A stretch of DNA of 64,000 bases from a bacterium. GTDB lineage: Bacteria > Patescibacteriota > Saccharimonadia > Saccharimonadales > DATKHC01. The notes under the pieces are model-generated. The model did not search any database, was not told the origin of the DNA, and saw only the letters and a program-made list of their open reading frames with translations. This document shows positions 2,105-54,394 of the stretch, piece after piece. The translations under genes and the position numbers were made by a program. Location of the stretch: contig JAJXXC010000004.1 of NCBI GenBank assembly GCA_021781215.1, positions 2,975 to 66,974 on the forward strand. The letters run 5' to 3'. Position 1 is the first letter of the stretch; every line of letters starts with the position of its first letter.

Positions 2105-3043
2105 CTATATACTATTGTCTAATTTTATAGACGGGCCCATTGTTGTCGATAGAAAAATTGATAGTATATAGCTACCCTTAACATTAGCCGGTTTATTACT
2201 TTTAATAGAGTTTAAAACAACTTCAGCATTAGCTATCAACTTATCTTTTCCAAAACTTACTTTTCCGAAACCTAAGTGAACAATTCCACTGCTATCGATC
2301 TTATATTCTACCTTGCCGGCCTTAGATTCTTTTACGGCTTTTGCGGTATCTGTAGTCACTGTACCATTCTTTGGATTAGGCATTAAACCCTTAGGGCCAA
2401 GAATACGTGCATACTTAGCTAATTTAGGCATCATTGAAGGCGTGGAAATTAAAATATCAAAATTAATCAACGACTTATCAAGCTGTTCCAAAAATGCGTC
2501 ACCTAATGCTATATCAGCTCCAGCTTTTTTTGAGGCTTCAATTTCTTTATCATCAGCGAAAACAGCAATTCTTAAAGTTTTGCCTGTCCCGTGAGGTAAT
2601 ACTATATTATCTCTAATATTCTGGTCAGCATGTTTTGGATCAACTCCAAGTTTAATATGCATTTCGACGGTTGCATCAAATTTTGATGTGTTTGATTTAA
2701 TTGCTAAATCTACGGCTTCTGATATGCTATATAATTTAGTTTTATCTACTATCTTATAGGCTTCCTGATATTTTTTACCTCTTCTTGATAGAATCGATCG
2801 AGTAGGGTTTTGAGTTTTTTTGCTAACAACTTCTTCTACTAAAGCCTCTTCTGCCTTTTTAAGTTTTTTAGCTTCAAGGGCTTCTGATTCTGCTATTGAT
2901 TTAGCACTTCTTTTTCCGGCCTTAGCCAAGACTTCAGGGGCATCGATTTTCGCTACTTTCATAGCTTTTTCTTTAGGTTCAGTTACTTTTGGTTTTTTAA
3001 CCAATTTATCAGCTTCAGTCTTTATTGTTTCTTTCTTAACCAT
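2105..3043 (-). CDS. rplA: 50S ribosomal protein L1 with a ~97-aa Lys/Glu/Ala-rich N-terminal extension
   Basis: The canonical L1 core starts at RRGKKYQEAYKIVDKTKLYSISEAVDL. Start moved from the track's TTG (3088) to ATG at 3043, which is preceded by AAGGAGAA at proper spacing. Follows rplK. Confidence 0.9.
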   Translation of the reverse strand: MVKKETIKTEADKLVKKPKVTEPKEKAMKVAKIDAPEVLAKAGKRSAKSIAESEALEAKKLKKAEEALVEEVVSKKTQNPTRSILSRRGKKYQEAYKIVDKTKLYSISEAVDLAIKSNTSKFDATVEMHIKLGVDPKHADQNIRDNIVLPHGTGKTLRIAVFADDKEIEASKKAGADIALGDAFLEQLDKSLINFDILISTPSMMPKLAKYARILGPKGLMPNPKNGTVTTDTAKAVKESKAGKVEYKIDSSGIVHLGFGKVSFGKDKLIANAEVVLNSIKSNKPANVKGSYILSIFLSTTMGPSIKLDNSI

Positions 3044-3093
3044 TTGATTCTCCTTCGTGGTGCAATCGGCATATTTTGCCTCCCACAAATTAA

Positions 3094-36300: not shown

Positions 36301-36965
36301 TCTAAATAATTCAATGTGCCGGTATCGACATGCGCAAAAGCTTCTCTCATAGCACCAATATTCATGCCAAGCGATTTAAGAAGCGTAGTGACTGGGATTT
36401 TTCGTTTTCGATCAATTTTAACGTATATAACTCCGTTTGAAGAAGTTTCAAATTCTAACCAAGCTCCACGATTAGGAATTACTTTGGCGCCATAGAAATT
36501 ATGAGCGTTAACTGTCTCGGCGGTAAAGAAGACACCGGATGATCTAATTAGTTGTGAAACCACAACACGTTCGGCTCCGTTGATAATAAACGTACCCCTA
36601 GAAGTCATCCATGGGTAATCTCCAAGATATATTTCTTGCTCTTTTACTTCACCGGTTACTTTATTAGTTAGCTCAACTGTAGCTTTTAGAGGGGACTCAT
36701 AAGAAACATTATTAATTCTAGCTTCGTCTTCGGTTAGTTTTGGCTCTTCGAATCGATAGCCCTTAAATGACAGCGATAATTTTCCACCGGTATAATCATC
36801 GATTGGATTAATTTCGGCGAATATTTCACCTAGCCCCTCATCAATAAACCATTGAAAGGATTTATTTTGATGATTTATTAAATTGGGTACACCAATAATA
36901 TTATCGATTGATGTAAAAAATGTTCTATTAGTTAGTTTATCTACAGTTGATGTGGTCTTTGCCAT
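33396..36965 (-). CDS. rpoB: DNA-directed RNA polymerase subunit beta (acidic C-terminal tail)
   Basis: GDKLAGRHGNKGVIARV and FGEMEVWALEAYGAA. ATG 36965 is preferred over the track's TTG 36971. Confidence 0.98.
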   Translation of the reverse strand: MAKTTSTVDKLTNRTFFTSIDNIIGVPNLINHQNKSFQWFIDEGLGEIFAEINPIDDYTGGKLSLSFKGYRFEEPKLTEDEARINNVSYESPLKATVELTNKVTGEVKEQEIYLGDYPWMTSRGTFIINGAERVVVSQLIRSSGVFFTAETVNAHNFYGAKVIPNRGAWLEFETSSNGVIYVKIDRKRKIPVTTLLKSLGMNIGAMREAFAHVDTGTLNYLDTTLAKDPASGSNEALIEIYRRLRPGDLATVENARSLIENMFYNFKRFDFSRVGRYKINKRLDIDIPNTIENRIMRLEDLVAIVSEIIRLNNTQDPADDIDSLANRRVKLVGELVQRQFRIGLLRMERNTKDRMSMNEIETVTASQLINARPIVAAVREFFAVSQLSQFMDQINPLSELAHKRRLSSMGPGGLSRERAGFEVRDAHATHYGRICTVETPEGANIGLVLNLATYARINDYGFVETPYKKIINSVTAKDAVGQIAKVDLEDENGKVIVKANSKITAAQAASLAKVKNQVTWPVKPHLSNEVIFLDASEEENAVIASADVKFDEDGFFIDQRVSARNRLVTGEVDSDIVTHIDAATNQTIGSNASLIPFVEKDRVDRALTGANQQKQAVPLINPKAPIVGTGFERTLALNTSQLIVAEDKGEVIKASADEVVVKYPKITKTYKPVHFQRSNEGTSINQKVVVNSGDKLVAGQPLIEGMSIQDGELAVGRDVKVAFMPWNGYNFEDAIVISERLVREDVFTSIHIMDFMVEVRETKLGPELLTGDIPNVSEEILRHLDEDGIIRIGAEVHPGDILVGKITPKGEQELSSEERLLRAIFGEKAKEVRDTSERMSNGKHGKVVGVKIFSRENGHELKSGVIKQVQVFVAQMRKIQVGDKLAGRHGNKGVIARVLPVADMPFLADGTPVDVILNPMGVPSRMNIGQLFETHLGMAAEALGIKVATPPFNGISIETIQDLLKEAGLPEDGKQQLFDGRTGEAFKERTVVGVMHILKLEHMVTDKIHARSTGPYTMVTQQPLGGKAQNGGQRFGEMEVWALEAYGAAVSLQEMLTIKSDDVYGRSKAYEAIIKGTAIQGPKVPESFNVLVKELMGLILKVELRTNDKQITVDAEKILASNIKTESEHISTVDVPQPLASEVDESSDNTPNEFMIVDLDDELHASDVDDSELSIVNPSDIENEFKEAA

Positions 36966-37121
36966 AAACAAGGGACTCCCAAATTAAGTAATATTAGTAT
37001 TTTTTTATTTAGTTAGCGAAGACCACTACATCGGTCAATTGATTTAGATTTTTTATAAAATCAAATATCCCGAAATATACTACTTCATTGCCACTTAGTT
37101 TGTCGAAAAAACTAATCGGTG

Positions 37122-37736
37122 TCAAGTACTTTTTTGGTTTTTTATCGATTTAATAACGTTGTCGACTAACCCATAGTCTTTGGCTTCTGACGACGTCATG
37201 TAATAATCTCTTTCCATGTCCTGGTGGACCTTGGAAACTTTTTGTCCGGTATTATCGGCAATTATAGATTCAAGTTGCTTCTTTAACTTCAATGATTCTT
37301 CCAACACGATTTCCATGTCAGTTACCTTACCACGAGTTCCACTAGATGGTTGATGAATCATAATTTTAGAGTTAGGAAGAGCGAATCTTTTACCCTTAGT
37401 TCCACTACTTAGTAAAAACGCAGCCGCACTAGCTGCCATACCGATTACTATGGTTTGAACATCAGATTTAATGTATTTAATCGTGTCATAGATAGCGAGA
37501 GCGTCGTAAACACTTCCACCCGGACTATTAATATAAATTGAGATATCTTTATTTGGATCCTGACTGTCTAAAAACAATAGCTGCGCCACTAATATATTGG
37601 CAGTTTGCTCATCAATTTCAGTACCTAGGAAGATAATCCTATCCTTTAATAGGCGGGAATAGATATCATAGACTCTTTCAGAGCGGCCATCATTTTCAAT
37701 TACAGTTGGGACTAATGTTTGATGTATTCGATTCAT
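37122..37736 (-). CDS. clpP: ATP-dependent Clp protease proteolytic subunit
   Basis: [14 protein letters not shown] (active-site Ser) and MIHQPS (His). Follows tig. No clpX follows. Confidence 0.95.
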
Positions 37737-37769
37737 AAGTGTCCAATACTCCTGTTAAATATAATATAA

Positions 37770-37807
37770 ATTATATACATCTAGCACTCGTAAGTCAAGA
37801 GTGCTAA
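37770..37807 (-). promoter_or_regulatory. CIRCE (HrcA operator) overlapping a near-consensus promoter of clpP
   Basis: Minus strand reads TTAGCACTC-TTGACTTAC-GAGTGCTAG (37807-37781; consensus is TTAGCACTC-N9-GAGTGCTAA). The spacer contains TTGACT (-35), followed by 17 nt and TATAAT (37775-37770). AGGAG RBS precedes the clpP ATG. Confidence 0.8.
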
Positions 37808-39100
37808 TTATTTGGCAATAGCGTATTTTACTAACTGAGCGACGGTTTTCTCAGCCATTAATCGACTACCGATCTGTTGCTTAAATTCAGGTTTGCTCAT
37901 CTCTTCTTGTGAAGCTGGGTCTGGATATTGCTGTTTAATTTGGTTGATTCTATTATCGACTTCTTCAGGAGATACCTGAATGCCTTCTACGCTAGCAATC
38001 TCTGACAAAACGATACTGTGTCTTAATCGATCAATGGCTTCAGGACGTAATCTATTGGTCTTTAATTCATCCTCGGTAATTGATTCTTGTTTTAAATACT
38101 CTTCTAAAGTCTGGCCTCGGTAAACTAAGTTTTGTTTTAATTCTGTGAGCTTATCTTCAATTTCATTATTAATTAATGGCTCAGGGATATCGAAATTTGT
38201 TTTATCAGTTATTAGTTTAATTAAATCAGCCTCGTAATTCCGATCTAATGTATTTTGTTTTTCAAACTCTAACTGTTGTTTGATATCAGCTCTTAATTCA
38301 TCTACTGTCTTAAACGGACCAGATTTAACCGCCATCTCATCATTAACCTCAGGTTTAACAATTTCCTGAACCTTAGTTATATCTACTTTAAATGTTACGT
38401 CTCGACTGGCTAGTGCCTTCAAGTGGTAATCTTTTGGAAACTTTAATACAAAGGTTTTTTGATCATTAGCTTTTAATCCAATAATATTGGTTTCAAAACC
38501 CGGTATAAAAGTATTACTACCTAAAATCAACGGGTAATCCTTGCCCGTAGCTCCTTCAACAGCCTTGCCTTTATCGTCGGTGCCTTCGAAATCAATCCAT
38601 ACCTGATCACCGTCCCTAGACGCGCGATCCACGTCTTTTCTAACTGCTAACTGAGTTCTAACTCGCTCAATAACTTCATCAATCTCAGCCTTTGTTGCCA
38701 CTTTTTTTGGTTCTTGGGCTAATTTAATCTTTTTATAATCAGGTAATTTAATATCTTCCAAGATAGATACTTCAACCGTAAACTCAAGCTGGCTATATGG
38801 AACGAATTTAGTTATTTCAATTTTAGGCTGTTCAACGACTCTAAGTTTTTTTTCAGATACAGACTTTGAATATAAATCATTAATAATCTCATCTAGGAAT
38901 TGTCCCTGAACTTGATTGGGGTCGACATTCTTCTCGACAATAGATAGCGGTACTTTACCCTGTCTAAATCCCGCTATCTTTAGATCTTTCTGAAAATGAT
39001 GTTCGAGGATATGATTCTTCATTGAATCAAGTTCAGACTTTTCTGCGGCAATAGTCATCTTTGTTTTATTTTTTGAAATCGATTGAGTAGTTATTTGCAT
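37808..39100 (-). CDS. tig: Trigger factor
   Basis: N-terminal ribosome-binding region with GFRQGKVP, central FKBP-like region, 430 aa, upstream of clpP. Confidence 0.9.
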   Translation of the reverse strand: MQITTQSISKNKTKMTIAAEKSELDSMKNHILEHHFQKDLKIAGFRQGKVPLSIVEKNVDPNQVQGQFLDEIINDLYSKSVSEKKLRVVEQPKIEITKFVPYSQLEFTVEVSILEDIKLPDYKKIKLAQEPKKVATKAEIDEVIERVRTQLAVRKDVDRASRDGDQVWIDFEGTDDKGKAVEGATGKDYPLILGSNTFIPGFETNIIGLKANDQKTFVLKFPKDYHLKALASRDVTFKVDITKVQEIVKPEVNDEMAVKSGPFKTVDELRADIKQQLEFEKQNTLDRNYEADLIKLITDKTNFDIPEPLINNEIEDKLTELKQNLVYRGQTLEEYLKQESITEDELKTNRLRPEAIDRLRHSIVLSEIASVEGIQVSPEEVDNRINQIKQQYPDPASQEEMSKPEFKQQIGSRLMAEKTVAQLVKYAIAK

Positions 39101-39154
39101 AGATATAGACTTTAACAGATTGTATTTATTTTTACTAACTTAAAATTAGTAGAG

Positions 39155-39547
39155 CTAAATATTATTCTTATGGGACTTTATATACTTACTGTTTAAAGCC
39201 GACAGTATTTGAGACTGAGAAAAACCTCTTGATGTTAAATATGCGGTCATTTCCACTCGAACATCTTCTCTGAAGGTTTTATGATCCAAACCTTGCTCTG
39301 ATAATATTTTATCTAATTGATGTGACATCAGTATCCCATGGACCTGGTCGTCGGTTCTGTCCAATACCGATGCTTCGGCATGAACCCTAGCTCTTCTTAA
39401 TACCGATTTCGGTATTTCACTAGATGATATTTTTTGAATTTGCCTGGTGCTATTTAGTGAACTGGCGAATGCCGCACTATTAAAAATAACCCCACTAATA
39501 ATGACTAGACTTAATACTGTCAAAACAGCCGAATTAATCTTTCTCAT
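39155..39547 (-). CDS. Hypothetical secreted protein (signal peptide)
   Basis: N-terminal MRKINSAVLTVLSLVIISGVIFNSAAFA looks like a Sec signal. No family recognised. Confidence 0.45.
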   Translation of the reverse strand: MRKINSAVLTVLSLVIISGVIFNSAAFASSLNSTRQIQKISSSEIPKSVLRRARVHAEASVLDRTDDQVHGILMSHQLDKILSEQGLDHKTFREDVRVEMTAYLTSRGFSQSQILSALNSKYIKSHKNNI

Positions 39548-45368: not shown

Positions 45369-48300
45369 ATGAGTAGACCAAAAATTTCACAAAATAGTCG
45401 TTCCGGAAGAAGCAAATCTAAGCTAAATCAAATCAAATCGACCCAGTTACATCGAAATATATCTAGCAAAAACCTAACATCCGGATTCGTGATGCCGAAT
45501 AATTTTGTATTTAGATTTTTTAAAAAATTCGAGCCTAAAAATCTATACAATTATTGGTTCTCAAAAAAGGGTGGACTTATGGCTCTCAAAATAATAGGAG
45601 TTGGCCTTATATTTGGGTTTGTTTCACTATACGTATTATTAGCTCTCTATGACAGTAAGGCTAATCTAGGTTCAAATAATCAAGCACTTTCAGGTAATTT
45701 AACAATCTATGATAGCACTGGTAAAAATATTATATATTCAGAACCACCCGCTCAGTCAACCACCCAAGAAAATCTAACTTCACTGAGTCAATCTTCTCGT
45801 TATGTTCAAGATGCCTCCATAGCAATCGAAGATAAAAATTTCTACCATGAAAACGGGGTAGATATATTAGCTATTCTAAGATCAGCAGTTCATGATGCGC
45901 TAACTTTAGGTACTAATAACATCGGTGGCTCAACTATAACTGAGCAAACCGTTAAATTAGATGACCTGCGGAATACAAATACAAGGACTTTATTTGCCAA
46001 ATTTTCCGAATTTTTCATCGCAATAGATACTAATAGGAAATTCACTAAACAACAAATTCTAACTCACTATCTTAATATTGCACCATACGGAGATATCAAT
46101 GGCGTTGAGGCTGCTTCAAAACAATATTTTGGCATTAACGCTAGTAAGCTAACAATTGCTGAATCGGCTTTATTGGCATCAATTCCAAGAGATCCGACAT
46201 ATTATGCTCCTAGCTCTGGAAATCCGTATTTTGACCGACAAGCTACTACAGTTCGTATGGATTACGTGATGAAGCTAATGCTTGACCAGGGCTACATTAC
46301 CAAAGCTCAATATGCTCAGGCATTAAAAGAGGACCCAATTGACCTAGCTTTGTCTCAAAAACCAATTCCACCAGTTGTAAATCTATATCCTAACTTCAAT
46401 TCAGCCGTAATTAAAGAAATAAGCTACGACCAGACATTAAGTCCTAGTAACCCTAGATACATAAACCCCTCTCTAAACATAAATGGTTTAAAAATAATTT
46501 CTACACTAAACATGGCCCAGCAGCAGTATGTAGATAACGCATTTACAGCCAACACAACTACTAATACCAGGTTCCCTGGCACTGGTGTTTCAGAAAACAT
46601 TTTTACAAATCATCTAAACGACGAAGCTTTCGTAGCTGAAAATGTTCCGACCGGTCAAATTACTGCTATGGTTGGTTCGTTTGATGAACAAAATCCATCA
46701 GATACCAGTAACTTTAGCATTAAGAGTGGTTCGACCTATACTTCAAATGGTAATGAATACGGCATTTCAACCAGAAATGGTAAAACTGTTCAGATAAATA
46801 GTTTTTATAACTTAAATTGTGCTACCAACCAAGAATGTGTCCAGCCAGGATCATCATTCAAGCTCTACGACTATTCAGCGTTAATAAATGACCCAACCGT
46901 AAATAATGGCAATGGCGCTGGAGCTGGTTCGGTTTTATATGACGTCCCGGGTCTTATTACTTGTACAACAAAGTGCGCTGGTACCCAGACTCCGGCAAAT
47001 TTGGGATGGGCTTGTGGTCAAACATCTAACAATAACTGTCTTAGGGATGACACTGGCCCAGCTGAAATCTATGGCCCGGTTACACTTAGATACGGATTAG
47101 GAAACTCTCTTAATATACCCGCAGTAAAGGCTGGTGCGATTGAGGGTAAGGACAGTAACGGTGTCTGGAGAGCTATCAATGTTGCAGATAACATGATGGG
47201 GACAAATTTTGTTAATGGAAATAAGATTAACGATTACGTTTGTATTGTTAATAATCCAGCTACGGGTGGCCCTGAAATAAATAGTCAAGGCAACTATGTT
47301 TATAGTGCACAAGCCTGTATCTCCGGCGAGCCTTTAATTGGTGACCAAGCACAGATATCTCTTATTGATCATGTAAACGGCTATGCAACAGCAGCTAGAT
47401 TAGGCGCCGAGATGCCATACACAACGATTCTTAGCATTATCAACCCAATAAACAATAAAGTACTATTTAAGTATACTAAGCCCGTCACTACTCAAGTCAT
47501 AAACCCGCAAACTGGGTATATTATGATGAACATGTTAAGTGACCATAACGCATCCTATATGGCCCCTTTACTCAAAGACGGCACGGGCTGGAACATAGCC
47601 TACAAGAGCGGCACCCAATTCGAACAATACAATGGACTAGTTATGGCGGCCTCAACCCAATATGCAGTTGGCATGTGGGTAGGTTGCCCCGATCACTGTA
47701 CCCAAAATGCCATGGTAAACGATGGAAGCGCCAGCAACCCAGTATACTTACCGGGCGGAGCAACACAACAGATGGAATTTATGACTGTACCAATTGTCAA
47801 AGATTTCATGTTGAATGTAGCACTTAAAAATTTACCAGTTACCAACTGGACTGCACCTGCTGGTATTCAAACCCTACCCGCATTTTGTCAAACTAAAAGG
47901 ATAAACTCAGATGTCCCGCCTTCTAATTGCACTAACTATACAGATATTTACCCATCGTGGTATAAACAATCTCAAGCAGCTAAGGGTGGCGTTTTCGATA
48001 AAGTATCAGGCGACCTAGCTACTAGCTGTACGCCAGCATTAGCTAAAACAACGGTTGGAGCTAGCAGTAACGTCAGCATCTATTCAATCGATCCATTCTA
48101 CACAGTTGCTCTTACCGGACAACAAAGTACCGTTAACTTATATAACTCATCCAAAACTGACCCCATTCATTTATGTAGCGATTCTATGCCGAAAGTAACA
48201 TTAAATTCTCAACAAAACGATGGAACTGCAAGCCCATCATGTACTGCCGGAACTTGCTCTTTCAATATTACTGCTACCCAAGGCACCCACCCACTTACAA

Positions 48301-48797
48301 GTACTCAATTTCCGCTACAGGTTAATGCCCTGGTGGGAGGTCAAACCATTCCAGCAACATGCAGCAACTTTAACCCTACTATGGATCCTAATAACTCTCC
48401 TGCCGTTTCAACTGGCGACTGTACGTTTAGTTACAATACACCAGGAACTACTAACTTAACAGTCGAGGTGATAGACAGCGTCCTCGATACTTCAAGCCCT
48501 TCAAATGCCCTACCAATAACCGTAACAGCACCAGCAAATAATGGCTCTAATGTTATCAGTACCGATAAAAATACTGGCACATCAACAATCGCCGTGTCAT
48601 GGACTCAGAATAGCTCAGACACATATACCTGTACCTTTACGGCTAATGGAGGTTCTCCAGACACAACCTCAACTACCGCCACCAATAGTTGTGAGTCTCC
48701 AGCGATTCCTTACCCAGCAAATACCAGCGTAGTAATCAATGTGTCAGATAATACCACTAGCCAAACTATCTACAATAAGACTGTTGTAACTCCTTAG
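45369..48797 (+). CDS. Class A penicillin-binding protein (GT51 transglycosylase plus transpeptidase) with large insertions and a ~330-aa Thr/Ser/Cys-rich C-terminal region
   Basis: N-terminal TM. GT51 motifs AIEDKNFYHENGVD and GGSTITEQ. Transpeptidase motifs SSFK, SLN and KSGT. 1142 aa. Confidence 0.85.
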   Translation: MSRPKISQNSRSGRSKSKLNQIKSTQLHRNISSKNLTSGFVMPNNFVFRFFKKFEPKNLYNYWFSKKGGLMALKIIGVGLIFGFVSLYVLLALYDSKANLGSNNQALSGNLTIYDSTGKNIIYSEPPAQSTTQENLTSLSQSSRYVQDASIAIEDKNFYHENGVDILAILRSAVHDALTLGTNNIGGSTITEQTVKLDDLRNTNTRTLFAKFSEFFIAIDTNRKFTKQQILTHYLNIAPYGDINGVEAASKQYFGINASKLTIAESALLASIPRDPTYYAPSSGNPYFDRQATTVRMDYVMKLMLDQGYITKAQYAQALKEDPIDLALSQKPIPPVVNLYPNFNSAVIKEISYDQTLSPSNPRYINPSLNINGLKIISTLNMAQQQYVDNAFTANTTTNTRFPGTGVSENIFTNHLNDEAFVAENVPTGQITAMVGSFDEQNPSDTSNFSIKSGSTYTSNGNEYGISTRNGKTVQINSFYNLNCATNQECVQPGSSFKLYDYSALINDPTVNNGNGAGAGSVLYDVPGLITCTTKCAGTQTPANLGWACGQTSNNNCLRDDTGPAEIYGPVTLRYGLGNSLNIPAVKAGAIEGKDSNGVWRAINVADNMMGTNFVNGNKINDYVCIVNNPATGGPEINSQGNYVYSAQACISGEPLIGDQAQISLIDHVNGYATAARLGAEMPYTTILSIINPINNKVLFKYTKPVTTQVINPQTGYIMMNMLSDHNASYMAPLLKDGTGWNIAYKSGTQFEQYNGLVMAASTQYAVGMWVGCPDHCTQNAMVNDGSASNPVYLPGGATQQMEFMTVPIVKDFMLNVALKNLPVTNWTAPAGIQTLPAFCQTKRINSDVPPSNCTNYTDIYPSWYKQSQAAKGGVFDKVSGDLATSCTPALAKTTVGASSNVSIYSIDPFYTVALTGQQSTVNLYNSSKTDPIHLCSDSMPKVTLNSQQNDGTASPSCTAGTCSFNITATQGTHPLTSTQFPLQVNALVGGQTIPATCSNFNPTMDPNNSPAVSTGDCTFSYNTPGTTNLTVEVIDSVLDTSSPSNALPITVTAPANNGSNVISTDKNTGTSTIAVSWTQNSSDTYTCTFTANGGSPDTTSTTATNSCESPAIPYPANTSVVINVSDNTTSQTIYNKTVVTP

Positions 48798-48808: not shown

Positions 48809-49492
48809 TTACTTGTTGTCAATCACTTCTGCGAACAACATCTTACCGGCGGCAGTTTGAAGCGATCTGGAAATTTCAACTCTAACGGTCTTACCGATTG
48901 ATTTAACGGAATTATTTACTACTACCATTGTTCCATCGTCGAGATAGCCAACGGCCTGGGATTGGTTAGAGCCTTTTTGAACTAACTTGATTGTTGCCTG
49001 TTCGCCAGGTAAAATTTCTGGTCGTAATTGCTGCGCCAGCTCATTTACATTCAATACAGTTACACCGCTAATATCTGCAACCTTATTTAAATTATAATCA
49101 GTAGTGTAGAGTGATATATTTAATTTCTTAGCTAACTTAACTAATTTATCATCCGTTTGCATACTGTCATTTAAAAGCATCTTGTTAATAGTTACTATTG
49201 AATTAGGACTATTTTGCAATTCTTTTACTACATCAAGACCGTACCTAGCTCTAGCTCTTTTTCTTGAGTCAGAACCATCTGCTAGCATCTGTAGTTCATG
49301 AATTATGAATTCAGGAATTATCAACTCATCAGGAATAAATCCAGACTTACTAAGTTCGAGAATTCTGCCATCTATCAACCCTGAAGTATCTAAAACTACT
49401 CTGCGGTGACTCTTATTCTTGGGCTTAAAGCCATTTTTAAAAGCTAACATTAATATAATAATTACTAGTAATAATGTGTCTAAAATTGCCAT
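48809..49492 (-). CDS. yacL: PIN/TRAM-domain membrane protein (YacL-like)
   Basis: N-terminal TM, PIN-like VVLDTSGLIDGRI...LADGSD, C-terminal TRAM-like beta region. Lies next to radA, as in Firmicutes. Confidence 0.7.
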   Translation of the reverse strand: MAILDTLLLVIIILMLAFKNGFKPKNKSHRRVVLDTSGLIDGRILELSKSGFIPDELIIPEFIIHELQMLADGSDSRKRARARYGLDVVKELQNSPNSIVTINKMLLNDSMQTDDKLVKLAKKLNISLYTTDYNLNKVADISGVTVLNVNELAQQLRPEILPGEQATIKLVQKGSNQSQAVGYLDDGTMVVVNNSVKSIGKTVRVEISRSLQTAAGKMLFAEVIDNK

Positions 49493-49493
49493 T

Positions 49494-50834
49494 TCACCCT
49501 TTCTTTAAAAATTCGTTTAAAGCAGACTTAATATCCCTTATTTGACGATGCCCCTTAACGCTCTTAGTGCTTTTAAGTCTAGGGCCAATAGTGCCATCAA
49601 ATCCTAATTTTGTGGCTTCGGCAATTCTTTTTTCCATATAGGGGACATGTCTAATCTCGCCAGACAAACCGACTTCGCCAAATACTACTGCGTCAACTGC
49701 CAGCTGCATATTACGACTAGCTGAAGCAATTGCCATACAAATTGCTAGATCAACTGCTGGTTCTGAAATTTTTATTCCGCCGACAATATTAATATAAATA
49801 TCGCTATCGCTTAGATTTAACTTAGTTCTTTTTTCCAGCATGGCTATTAAAAGATTAACTCTATTTAAATCTATGCCGCTGGCAGCTCTTTTAGGGTACC
49901 CATAGCTGGATTTATTAACCAATGCCTGTACTTCAACCAATAGCGGCCTATTGCCTTCAATGGTGGCGAATACGACCGAACCATCACTCGCCTGTCTCTC
50001 AGCCAATAATGCGGCTGATGGATTATCTACAACCTGAAACCCATTTTCATCCATTTCATAAATTCCGGTCTCTTCAGTAGAACCAAAGCGATTTTTAATA
50101 GCTCTAACCAATTTAAGCCCACCGTAACGATCGCCTTCTATTTGAATAACAACGTCGACAATATGCTCTAAGACTTTTGGTCCAGCTATATTGCCCTCCT
50201 TAGTAACGTGACCAACTAGAATAATCGAGCAGTCCTTAGCTTTAGCTACATTAATTAAAAGATTGGCGCTATTAGTAATTTGGCTAACTGATCCGGGGCT
50301 AGTTAGGACATCGTCACAGGCAATAGTTTGGATTGAATCAACTATGACTAACTTATACCCCCCTTCACTAATAGCCTCTACTATCTGATAAGTTGAATTA
50401 GAGTTTGCAATTACCAGATTATCCGAATCAACACCCAGGCGTTTTGCGCGAATACTCACCTGATGAGATGATTCCTCACCACTTACATAAAGAACCGAAT
50501 TATTTTTAGATATAAGGTTAGAAATCTGCATTAATAGTGTGCTTTTACCAATACCGGGCTGGCCGGCTAACAGAGTTACTGACCCTGGCACAATTCCGCC
50601 ACCAAAAATGTTATCTATGTCTTTCATGCCAGAAACTAGTCTGGGCAAATCAGCCTCTAAATTCTTGGCGATAGTAGAGGTAGAAAGCTTTATACCCTTA
50701 GGTGCATTCTTGGTAAATTTAAGTTGTTCCTGTAGAGTATTCCACTCGCCACAGCTATAACACCTACCACTCCAGCTATCTGATTCGGCCCCACAACTGT
50801 TACAAACGAATTGTTTGAAATTCTTCTTTGCCAT
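49494..50834 (-). CDS. radA: DNA repair protein RadA/Sms
   Basis: Zn finger CNSCGAESDSWSGRCYSCGEW, Walker A GQPGIGKST, KNRFG, Lon-like C-terminus. Confidence 0.95.
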   Translation of the reverse strand: MAKKNFKQFVCNSCGAESDSWSGRCYSCGEWNTLQEQLKFTKNAPKGIKLSTSTIAKNLEADLPRLVSGMKDIDNIFGGGIVPGSVTLLAGQPGIGKSTLLMQISNLISKNNSVLYVSGEESSHQVSIRAKRLGVDSDNLVIANSNSTYQIVEAISEGGYKLVIVDSIQTIACDDVLTSPGSVSQITNSANLLINVAKAKDCSIILVGHVTKEGNIAGPKVLEHIVDVVIQIEGDRYGGLKLVRAIKNRFGSTEETGIYEMDENGFQVVDNPSAALLAERQASDGSVVFATIEGNRPLLVEVQALVNKSSYGYPKRAASGIDLNRVNLLIAMLEKRTKLNLSDSDIYINIVGGIKISEPAVDLAICMAIASASRNMQLAVDAVVFGEVGLSGEIRHVPYMEKRIAEATKLGFDGTIGPRLKSTKSVKGHRQIRDIKSALNEFLKKG

Positions 50835-50856
50835 ACTATATATATGATTCTAGCAG

Positions 50857-51834
50857 TTAGTTGGCTGGTACAGTAGCAGAAAGACTATTAATCTCACTAG
50901 ATAATTTATTTTCGGAGATTGCTGTCTGATTTCTTTGAACTACTAAAGCGTTATATTGATTAACCAATGCTTGATAGGTTGCTATTTGACTATTGTATAA
51001 ATTAACAAGGTTATTATATGGGGCTACTAAGTTATTATATTCGACATAGCTGCCGCTATACTTTAGAGAAGCTAATTGTGCTTGTTGATCCTTAATAGTT
51101 GCTAGCTCACTAGACATAGTGGAATACAACGAATCCATTTGAGATTTTAATGCAGCTAGTTGACGATCGTAGTTAGCAATAGCCGTTTCTCGTGCTGTAA
51201 AAACTGATTGATACTGATTCTCGAAATTCACTATTACTTGTCGATTTTTAAAGTATTTTTTGTAATAATTTTCAAGGGCTGGGGGCAAATTGGCAATTTC
51301 CGTGCCCAGTGTTGAGTGCATTTCGTTTTCGATAGCACCGGGTCCTTCAGTTTTTAGATAAGATTGATATTGAGTTCTCAGAAATGGATCATTTACAGAC
51401 AACTTATTATAAGTCGACATTACTAGTTGATTAACTGTTTTTAATTGGCTACCAGATAGCCTAGAATACGCCACATGAAGCATTTCGTAAGCCGCCGTTA
51501 CTTGCTCAACACCGTTTAGAATAGGGTCTTTGATATCATATAAATATATACCTCTGCCGATTACTGTACAGCCCAAAACTACAGCTGCCGGCGTGACCTT
51601 ACAGTGATTATTAAAATTGGCGCTATCTTCAAGTACGGGATGGTAGACATATAACAATCTTTTAGAGTAATTAGTTAATTGGTCTTCTTTAGCGATTGTA
51701 GCAATTGCCGATGGTGGGCTATAGCCATATAGTCTGTATTCATCGTAAAACCACCAACGATTTAGCCACAGTAAATAAAGAGCGACTAATACTAAGATAA
51801 GCAGTATAGGCTTCAGTAACTTTTTGAGCATCAC
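50857..51834 (-). CDS. Hypothetical membrane-anchored protein with Gln/Asn/Tyr-rich coiled-coil C-terminus
   Basis: N-terminal TM helix. The C-terminal third has five consecutive Y-(N/Q)-x-x-x-x-x heptads. No family recognised. Confidence 0.45.
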   Translation of the reverse strand: MMLKKLLKPILLILVLVALYLLWLNRWWFYDEYRLYGYSPPSAIATIAKEDQLTNYSKRLLYVYHPVLEDSANFNNHCKVTPAAVVLGCTVIGRGIYLYDIKDPILNGVEQVTAAYEMLHVAYSRLSGSQLKTVNQLVMSTYNKLSVNDPFLRTQYQSYLKTEGPGAIENEMHSTLGTEIANLPPALENYYKKYFKNRQVIVNFENQYQSVFTARETAIANYDRQLAALKSQMDSLYSTMSSELATIKDQQAQLASLKYSGSYVEYNNLVAPYNNLVNLYNSQIATYQALVNQYNALVVQRNQTAISENKLSSEINSLSATVPAN

Positions 51835-51837
51835 CTA

Positions 51838-54312
51838 CTATTCTACTTGATTTTTGTATGTAAGTTTATTTTTATTTGTACTAACAAGTACTATGCTTCC
51901 ACGATTAACATTATTATCTAATATACCGGTTGTTACATAGTCTTCTATAGTGTCTTGGATTAGTCTCCTGAGTGGTCGAGCGCCGTTTTTTGTATCATAA
52001 CCATTCTCGACTAAATAATTCTTTGCAGAATCTGTTAAATTAACACGTATTCCTCTTTTGATTAGTCTTTGATTGAGTTCTTCTAGCTGCAAATCAATAA
52101 TTTTCTTAATATTAGTCTTAGTCAAAGCTCTAAATACAATTACTTTATCTATTCGATTAATCAACTCGGGTCTTAGTAGTTTTTTAAGTTCGTCTTGAAC
52201 CTTTTGTTTATTAGCTTGATGTAGGGATTCCAAGTCTTTTAGGTCATCTTTAGCTTGAGCGCTAAAACCAAGCGAAACTTCTTTTTGTAGCTTCTCGGCG
52301 CCTAGGTTACTGGTCATTATGATAATCGTATTAGTAAAATCTATCTTTCTACCCTTGGAATCTGTTAGACGACCGTCTTCTAAGATTTGTAATAACATAT
52401 TAAAGACTTCTGGGTGGGCTTTCTCTATCTCATCAAATAACACTAAAGAATATGGCTGACGACGTATTTTGTCTGTTAGTTGCCCGCCGTCGTCATAACC
52501 GACATACCCAGCGGGAGCACCAACTAATCTTGAAACCGTATGACGTTCTCCGAATTCACTCATGTCAATTTTTACCAAGGCATTTTCACTACCAAAAAAT
52601 TCTTTAGCTAAAACTCTGGCAAGCTCGGTTTTACCTACTCCGGTTGGACCAAGAAAAACAAATGAACCCATCGGACGCTTATCGCTACCGACTCCTACTC
52701 GATTACGCCTTACGGCTTTAGAGATGGCTTCTATGGCCTCATCTTGACCAATGACTAATTTACTAAGGGTTTTTTCTAAATTAATAAGATATCTGGCTTC
52801 AGACTTAATAACTCTTTTAACTGGCACGCCAGTAATTCTAGAAACTACTTCCGCAACGTCGTCACTAGACAAAACTATATCTTTGCTGGCTTTTAGATTT
52901 ACTTGAAGCTTCTTCAAATCTTCCTTAATCTGCGAAGCCCGTTGCTTATGAACCGCTGCCCTTTCATAATCTTTCAGTTCAACAGCATCATCAATCCTAG
53001 AATCAATTAATTTTAATTCCTTCTGTAAATTCCTAACTTCCGGTGGAGTTTTAGCTTTATCTATTCTGACATATGCCGCACTCTCATCTATTAAATCAAT
53101 CGCTTTATCTGGAAGAAATCTATCATTAATATATCGTTTAGCAAATGCAGCCGTGTCCTCAATGACTTCATCAGAAATCTTAACGCCATGGAATTGTTCA
53201 TAGTGTTTGCGTATTCCCTTAAGAATCGATACCGTTTCACTTAAACTGGCTTCAGGGACTTGAATAGGCTGAAATCTTCTCTCGAGTGCTGCATCTTTCT
53301 CAATATATTTTGTATATTCAGCGGTTGTTGTAGCACCAATAACTTGCATATCGCCTCTAGCTAATGCCGGTTTTAAGATATTTCCAGCGTCCATTGCTCC
53401 TTCTGCCGCACCGGCACCTACAATCAAATGAAGTTCGTCGATAAACAGAATAATATTCTTGTCTTTTTCTAAATCTGATATAACCTTCTTCAACCGGTCT
53501 TCAAATTCACCTCTATATTTTGTTCCAGCAATCATTCCGGCTAAATCTAATACAATAATTTTTTTATCAAGTAGTGAATCTGGAACATCTTCAGAAACTA
53601 TCCTCTGTGCTAACCCTTCAACAATGGCCGTCTTGCCCACGCCCGGCTCACCTATTAACACTGGATTATTCTTATTTCTTCGGTTAAGGATAGTTAACAG
53701 CCTCTTAATCTGCGGGTCTCTCCCCACTACTGGATCTAGTTTGCCCAGTTTAGCTTTATTGGTTAAATCTGTTCCATAAAAATCTAGTATAGATTTTTTT
53801 GGTTTTTTAGATCTTTTAGCATCCTGTTCGTAATTAAGTGAATCGTCATAATTTTGTCGATTAATAAATTCTCCAAGTTCGGCTAACATTTTATCAATGT
53901 CAACTCCCATATCTCTCAACAATATCGTTCCCCGGGCGTTCTTTTGTACAAGAATGCTTCTTAGAATATGCTCAGTTCCGGTAAACTCTTGATTACTGTC
54001 TAGGGCAAATTCTTGAGCCATTCGAAGTGTTAATTTTGCAGTCTCACTAGGCATTTTAGTACTACCGTCCAAAATTATGGTTTTTGGAATTAGATTCAAA
54101 GATACCCTAGCACTCTCCAGGGACACACCTGCTCCTTCTAGTATTTTGGCCCCCATTGAGTTATCTTGAGCCAGAATCCCTAATAGCAGATGTTCGGTAC
54201 CAATATAAGGACTAGCAAAACTCTTAGCAATTAAATCTGCATGCTTAAGGCTTTGCATAGCATTGTCCGTTAAGTGATTAAGAAAATCTTGGAAATCTGG
54301 TGCTGAATTCAT
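51838..54312 (-). CDS. clpC: ATP-dependent Clp protease ATP-binding subunit ClpC (class I Clp/Hsp100)
   Basis: Double Clp_N repeat, Walker [10 protein letters not shown] and GPTGVGKTE, 824 aa. No long ClpB-type middle domain. Confidence 0.9.
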
Positions 54313-54356: not shown

Positions 54357-54394
54357 AGTATATATAATTAGCACTCACGAGTCAAGAGTGCTAA
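54357..54394 (-). promoter_or_regulatory. Perfect CIRCE (HrcA operator) overlapping the clpC promoter
   Basis: Minus strand reads TTAGCACTC-TTGACTCGT-GAGTGCTAA (54394-54368), an exact consensus match. TTGACT (-35) lies in the spacer, followed by 17 nt and TATACT (54362-54357). Confidence 0.8.

Follow-up and report, generated by a model that had tools for sequence, protein, structure and literature searches.

A putative HrcA operator (CIRCE) encloses the -35 element of the predicted clpP promoter in a saccharibacterial genome and recurs at clpC

The clpP gene described here follows the trigger factor gene tig, and the short stretch of DNA between the two contains an inverted repeat that resembles the operator of the repressor HrcA, known as CIRCE, which raises the question of whether HrcA governs this protease gene and, if so, by what means. 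To our knowledge almost nothing is known about the control of transcription in Saccharibacteria and the CPR, the genomes of which are tiny and contain few regulators, and we know of no described regulon from the CPR phylum. The analysed DNA (the window, referring to the whole 64-kb stretch) has a GC content of approximately 36% and is part of a low-GC Saccharibacteria (Patescibacteria) MAG; its proteins are found verbatim in MAGs, GCA_027356125.1 among them, while the closest ClpC, ClpP and Tig proteins among species-representative genomes (approximately 70%, approximately 70% and 42-50% identity, respectively) are from Candidatus Saccharibacteria/Saccharimonadales MAGs. Two related database entries carry the NCBI label 'Candidatus Dormibacteraeota': P0124 (HUY52980.1), a ClpC of the window's 90%-identity cluster, located on a contig of 35% GC with the same pepN-nusA-clpC synteny as the window, and P0089 (HUY85397.1), a short HrcA encoded on a contig of 54% GC. 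Both (loci L211 and L215) look like Saccharibacteria contigs that were mis-binned into Dormibacteraeota MAGs.

On the minus strand the DNA from the end of tig to the start of clpP reads ...gccaaa-TAA-TTAGCACTC-TTGACTTAC-GAGTGCTAG-atgta-TATAAT-ttatattatatttaac-AGGAG-tattggacactt-ATG. A preliminary description of this DNA had placed a CIRCE immediately behind the tig stop codon, with a -35 hexamer in its spacer and a -10 hexamer further on, and this arrangement was confirmed at the positions collected in Table 1, the repeat deviating by a single mismatch from the consensus TTAGCACTC-N9-GAGTGCTAA. In a promoter scan the combination TTGACT-17-TATAAT (37798..37770) matched at 11 of 12 positions and obtained the top score within 36900..39300. 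Transcription is predicted to start near 37763, giving a leader of approximately 27 nt, and as the CIRCE lies wholly upstream of this predicted start it would be absent from the clpP mRNA. Rfam covariance models gave no match at the CIRCE site, and within the window only four tRNAs reached the gathering score.

Table 1. Positions of the operators, promoters and genes at the clpP and clpC loci of the window.
Feature	Position	Strand	Remarks
CIRCE operator 1, TTAGCACTC-TTGACTTAC-GAGTGCTAG	37781..37807	minus	17/18 arm positions; first base is the next after the tig stop
tig stop codon TAA	37810..37808	minus	abuts CIRCE operator 1
clpP -35 hexamer TTGACT	37793..37798	minus	CIRCE spacer positions 1-6
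clpP -10 hexamer TATAAT	37770..37775	minus	17 nt between -35 and -10
Shine-Dalgarno AGGAG of clpP	37749..37753	minus	ATG 12 nt further on
clpP, 204 aa	37122..37736	minus	ATG at 37736; Pfam CLP_protease 4e-80; NCBIfam
tig, trigger factor, 430 aa	37808..39100	minus	Pfam and NCBIfam; gene upstream of clpP
CIRCE operator 2, TTAGCACTC-TTGACTCGT-GAGTGCTAA	54368..54394	minus	18/18 arm positions; first base is the next after the nusA stop codon TAA
clpC promoter	54357..54385	minus	-35 TTGACT (54385..54380) in the CIRCE spacer, 17 nt, -10 TATACT (54362..54357)
ClpC-type Hsp100 unfoldase, 824 aa	51838..54312	minus	Pfam, NCBIfam; short middle domain
orf325, 325 aa, membrane-anchored	50857..51834	minus	3 nt after clpC; N-terminal membrane helix

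The CIRCE pattern, when up to 3 mismatches were allowed, was encountered twice in the window as compared to 0.01 expected occurrences, and none of the 100 dinucleotide-preserving shuffles of the window that defined the chance level yielded two. The second copy, which the preliminary description did not mention, is a perfect one located between nusA and the gene for a ClpC-type unfoldase. The consensus inverted repeat with its 9-bp arms is thus present at both sites, and each overlaps the vegetative promoter of a protein-quality-control gene, with promoter matches of 11/12 at clpP and 10/12 at clpC. The layout is the same at the two loci, TTGACT occupying spacer positions 1-6 and the -10 box following 17 nt on, and both genes represent a leadered variant in which a Shine-Dalgarno sequence is found 12 nt before the ATG. 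The ClpB model matched the 824-aa Hsp100 protein in two pieces, with some 80 middle-domain positions absent, and residues 680-683 of that protein make up an SLGF loop where ClpC, ClpA and ClpX have their ClpP-docking loop, which identifies the protein as a ClpC-type partner of ClpP. The shared layout of CIRCE and -35 at clpP and clpC argues for co-regulation of the two halves of the ClpCP protease, and, as far as the DNA can tell, HrcA appears to control the protease as a whole in this lineage. The adjacent orf325, for which neither Pfam nor NCBIfam gave a match, is probably part of the same CIRCE-controlled transcript as clpC. Its position directly after clpC is kept in at least 15 Saccharibacteria loci (e.g. 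L118, L100, L093, L045, L076, L094 and L116), and in two of these, L094 and L116, the homologue stands between clpC and a clpP promoter with CIRCE; the protein could be a clpC-operon component specific to the lineage.

The occurrence of this arrangement outside the window was assessed by scanning 185,579 species genomes with the pattern TTAGCACTC-TTGAC-N4-GAGTGCTA, which retrieved at least 120 stretches, approximately three quarters of the matches listed being from Saccharibacteria or other Patescibacteria. Among the matches listed, the gene downstream of the CIRCE with its TTGAC spacer encoded DnaK at 30 sites, a ClpC-type AAA+ protein at 29, HrcA at 27, ClpP at 10 (the window included) and Hsp20 at 7, while groES or groEL was found behind none of the patescibacterial CIRCEs. 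A promoter of this type, with the -35 inside the CIRCE, therefore precedes clpC, dnaK, hsp20 and the short hrcA of the lineage, and it is likewise found before dnaJ. A second sample of 80 metagenome loci was fetched by ClpP similarity alone; the upstream DNA was usable in 78, and a CIRCE (up to 3 mismatches) with its end 17-162 nt ahead of the start codon was present in 68 of the 78, a frequency of 87% that may be an overestimate, as the query alignment was built from CIRCE-positive loci and the 80-locus set contains near-duplicates. The remaining ten clpP loci have good leaderless promoters without a CIRCE (L179, L180, L192 and L194 among them), so that a CIRCE at clpP is common in the lineage, albeit not universal. 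Across related clpP and clpC loci the CIRCE arms are invariant and the spacer bases variable. In a relative with the same gene order and a ClpC of the window's 90%-identity cluster, the clpC promoter region matches that of the window base for base in the CIRCE arms, the -35 and the -10, whereas three of three unconstrained spacer bases differ, representing a signature of selection on both operator and promoter.

The position of the promoter relative to the operator follows a small number of rules in these relatives. At the CIRCE-bearing clpP loci a -35-like hexamer (TTGACN or TTGCAA) is always located within the CIRCE, in one of three registers (+9, +11 or +13, counted in bases from the start of the CIRCE), with the -10 box 17-18 nt later in each; the register of the window clpP was also found in 32 related clpP loci, and 68 of 75 clpP CIRCE promoters scored at least 9/12. 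When all the gene families were pooled, 71 of 172 CIRCE promoters, representing every register, had their start codon 5-9 nt past the -10 box, mostly at 6-7 nt. This phasing of the start codon with the predicted -10 provides independent support that the predicted promoters are real, and implies that leaderless mRNAs would be widespread in the lineage (approximately 40% of CIRCE promoters; loci L125-L204 and L005-L124).

The preliminary description had further suggested that the hairpin could double as an intrinsic terminator of tig besides acting as operator and promoter of clpP. There is some basis for this: at clpP and clpC alike a stop codon is immediately followed by the first base of the CIRCE, and folding of the 71-nt segment as RNA predicts a stable stem (z about -3.3, -15 to -17 kcal/mol). 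Neither CIRCE was called in a terminator scan, however, the stem being closed by a 9-nt loop and followed by no T/U run, and at related clpP loci anything from 0 to 276 nt separates the CIRCE from the stop codon before it. Nor is the upstream gene constant: at the CIRCE-clpP loci besides the window, among the matches listed, it was tig in five and another gene in four, the Tig proteins of those five being only 42-50% identical to that of the window. Given the variable gap and the neighbours other than tig, the abutment of stop codon and CIRCE is most simply attributed to genome compaction, and we regard a terminator function as improbable.

On the basis of these findings we consider it highly probable that the element is a functional HrcA operator wrapped around the -35 of a sigma-70-type clpP promoter, and that HrcA represses by occlusion. 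With a transcription start near 37763 the CIRCE would extend from about -44 to -18, and an HrcA dimer bound to both arms would shield the -35, along with most of the spacer, from RNA polymerase, which could then not contact the -35. Such occlusion of the clpP promoter had been put forward in the preliminary description and is in agreement with the location of the -35 region within the CIRCE and the conservation of this layout in relatives. Upon stress HrcA binding would be lost, and clpP and clpC would be derepressed along with dnaK, dnaJ, hsp20 and hrcA itself, with which they would share HrcA control in the lineage. A transcriptome study of TM7x, a Saccharibacterium in culture, found 'clpB' and clpP transcripts to increase in concert (bioRxiv 10.1101/2022.03.25.485537), which is compatible with the HrcA model.

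The repressor itself was sought in the window and its surroundings. Comparison by tblastn of HrcA, DnaK, Hsp20, GroEL, GroES and DnaJ with the 64-kb window gave no match, and hrcA was absent from the window and from the 10 kb past either end (84 kb examined), for which reason we infer its presence in this genome from the lineage, hrcA being present and preceded by a CIRCE in many Saccharibacteria. Short homologues numbered at least 8000 in an HrcA profile search, and the best 120 of them (P0001-P0120) included none with the amino-acid composition expected of a 36% GC genome. P0089, which shares its metagenome assembly with a ClpC of the window's 90%-identity cluster, was considered as the HrcA of this genome and rejected, since its contig of 54% GC marks a different organism from the window. 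Patescibacterial HrcA proteins are approximately 230-250 aa long (typically about 234 aa), as compared to 344-360 aa for Streptococcus HrcA in the same set, and lack around 100 central residues relative to HrcA of Streptococcus or T. maritima (L117, L105, L091, L054 and others). The missing segment may be the inserted dimerisation domain, while the N-terminal winged-helix domain is retained and matches T. maritima HrcA 1STZ with an E value of 1e-23.

The failure to find hrcA in the 84 kb, together with the CIRCE-free promoters of some related clpP genes, could be taken to mean that the CIRCE is a relic, HrcA having been lost here and the sequence kept only for the -35 of a constitutive clpP promoter. 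A -35 requires just 6 of the 27 bases, yet the arms are intact at 17/18 and 18/18 positions in a genome of 36% GC, and they have stayed the same in the close relative in which every free spacer base is different. Decay of HrcA control is known to leave CIRCEs with 3-4 mutations, as in Spiroplasma melliferum (PMC5138195), and we therefore view a relic as very unlikely. Binding of the palindrome by some regulator besides HrcA, for which the atypically short HrcA of the lineage might speak, or a chance origin without any regulatory role, is barely credible: the arms conform to the canonical CIRCE consensus, and this site is also found before hrcA, dnaK, dnaJ and hsp20, i.e. the classical HrcA regulon; the short HrcA retains its winged-helix domain, and chance is excluded by the shuffles and by conservation.

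In Firmicutes, clpP and the ctsR-mcsA-mcsB-clpC-radA-disA operon constitute the class III regulon of CtsR. The genes concerned, clpP and clpC, are the same in the window, but their operator is a CIRCE and not the CtsR heptad repeat: a scan of the window for the tandem heptad RGTCAAA-NAN-RGTCAAA found none at either gene, and its only two matches, with 2 mismatches each (3962 and 39624), compare to 1.09 expected and are thus at chance level. Co-regulation of clpP and clpC by CtsR was therefore rejected, and HrcA is apparently the sole stress regulator that can be recognised at these genes. The order clpC-orf325-radA followed by a gene for a TRAM-domain (PIN/TRAM) protein (48809..54312, minus strand) resembles the clpC-radA-disA-yacL cluster of Firmicutes such as B. 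subtilis, with nusA and a CIRCE upstream of clpC in the window in place of ctsR-mcsA-mcsB in Firmicutes. We tentatively propose, holding it to be nearly as probable as its negation, that the truncated HrcA of about 234 aa might act as the single master regulator of DnaK/DnaJ/GrpE, Hsp20 and ClpC-ClpP in Saccharibacteria, and probably in other Patescibacteria, replacing control of the CtsR, ClgR or sigma-32 type and working through a dedicated promoter class which has its -35 within the CIRCE spacer, in any of three registers, and in many cases yields leaderless transcripts. The titration of HrcA by GroEL is a feedback loop known from Bacillus, Chlamydia and Helicobacter, and if the genomes of this lineage also lack GroESL, HrcA would have to sense stress without it.

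The closest known systems share parts of this arrangement. The class I regulon of Bacillus subtilis (groESL and hrcA-grpE-dnaK-dnaJ) uses the same operator, TTAGCACTC-N9-GAGTGCTAA, as the window, together with a vegetative sigma-70-type promoter, and autoregulation is suggested for the lineage too, where a CIRCE likewise precedes hrcA. The targets differ, being clpP and clpC in the window, and so does the placement: the B. subtilis CIRCE is said to lie between transcription start and start codon, a finding attributed to Zuber and Schumann in 1994, whereas that of the window surrounds the -35 and would not be transcribed from the clpP promoter. In Helicobacter pylori the HrcA operators, like the window CIRCE, overlap the core promoter (-35/-10) and act by promoter occlusion (PMC6032397); these are CIRCE-like operators at the groE and dnaK operons which act with HspR, as opposed to the canonical CIRCEs at clp genes of the window, where no HspR-type partner site was identified. 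The preliminary description had rightly referred to CIRCE at clpB and lon of Mollicutes, in which the dnaK operon is also CIRCE-controlled (PMC5138195), and had overlooked Streptococcus salivarius clpP, which, in the account of Chastanet & Msadek (2003, J Bacteriol 185:683) given in PMC6305308, is preceded by a CIRCE and under dual control of CtsR and HrcA. Going by that account, the clpP genes of S. salivarius and the window have the CIRCE in common, S. salivarius possessing in addition a CtsR box that the window does not. Mollicutes and the lineage of the window both have reduced genomes in which HrcA/CIRCE reaches protease or disaggregase genes beyond the classical chaperone operons, the targets being ClpB and Lon in Mollicutes as compared to the ClpC-ClpP pair in Patescibacteria, where the -35 is systematically inside the operator. 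Some Mollicutes promoters have tandem CIRCEs (PMC5138195), as do saccharibacterial dnaK promoters, in which two copies (e.g. L029 520-590, L016, L090 and L109) are placed such that one surrounds the -35 and the other, often TTGGCACTC-N9-GAGTGCTA, follows the -10.

HrcA/CIRCE itself is a classical and already known system, and the advance is for this reason incremental and not conceptual. What appears to be new is the lineage and the content of the regulon, with the full ClpC-ClpP pair under CIRCE in the absence of a CtsR box and in a CPR phylum, as well as the consistent placement of the -35 inside the HrcA operator; a full-text literature search revealed no paper tying HrcA or CIRCE to Saccharibacteria or Patescibacteria. 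The analysis provides a concrete and testable regulon, consisting of clpP, clpC, dnaK, dnaJ, hsp20 and hrcA, and a defined promoter/operator design that lends itself to use, for instance as a stress-inducible promoter, in the genetic systems now being developed for Saccharibacteria and the CPR. It also points to convergent rewiring in reduced genomes, with HrcA placed over protease genes as in Mollicutes, in this case the ClpCP pair that is CtsR-controlled in Firmicutes.

Three further observations concern other genes of this DNA. The ribosomal protein L1 gene at 2105..3088 (minus strand) encodes a product of 312-327 aa with a long N-terminal extension, the Pfam L1 domain beginning only at residue ~131. 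The 1142-aa protein encoded at 45369..48797 (plus strand) is recognised by Pfam solely through a transglycosylase domain (residues 130-304), with more than 800 residues left unassigned. Finally, approximately 1-3 kb past the left end of the window (L208, 6884..9178), a 764-aa open reading frame combines the Pfam domains of thymidylate kinase and ThyX (Thy1).
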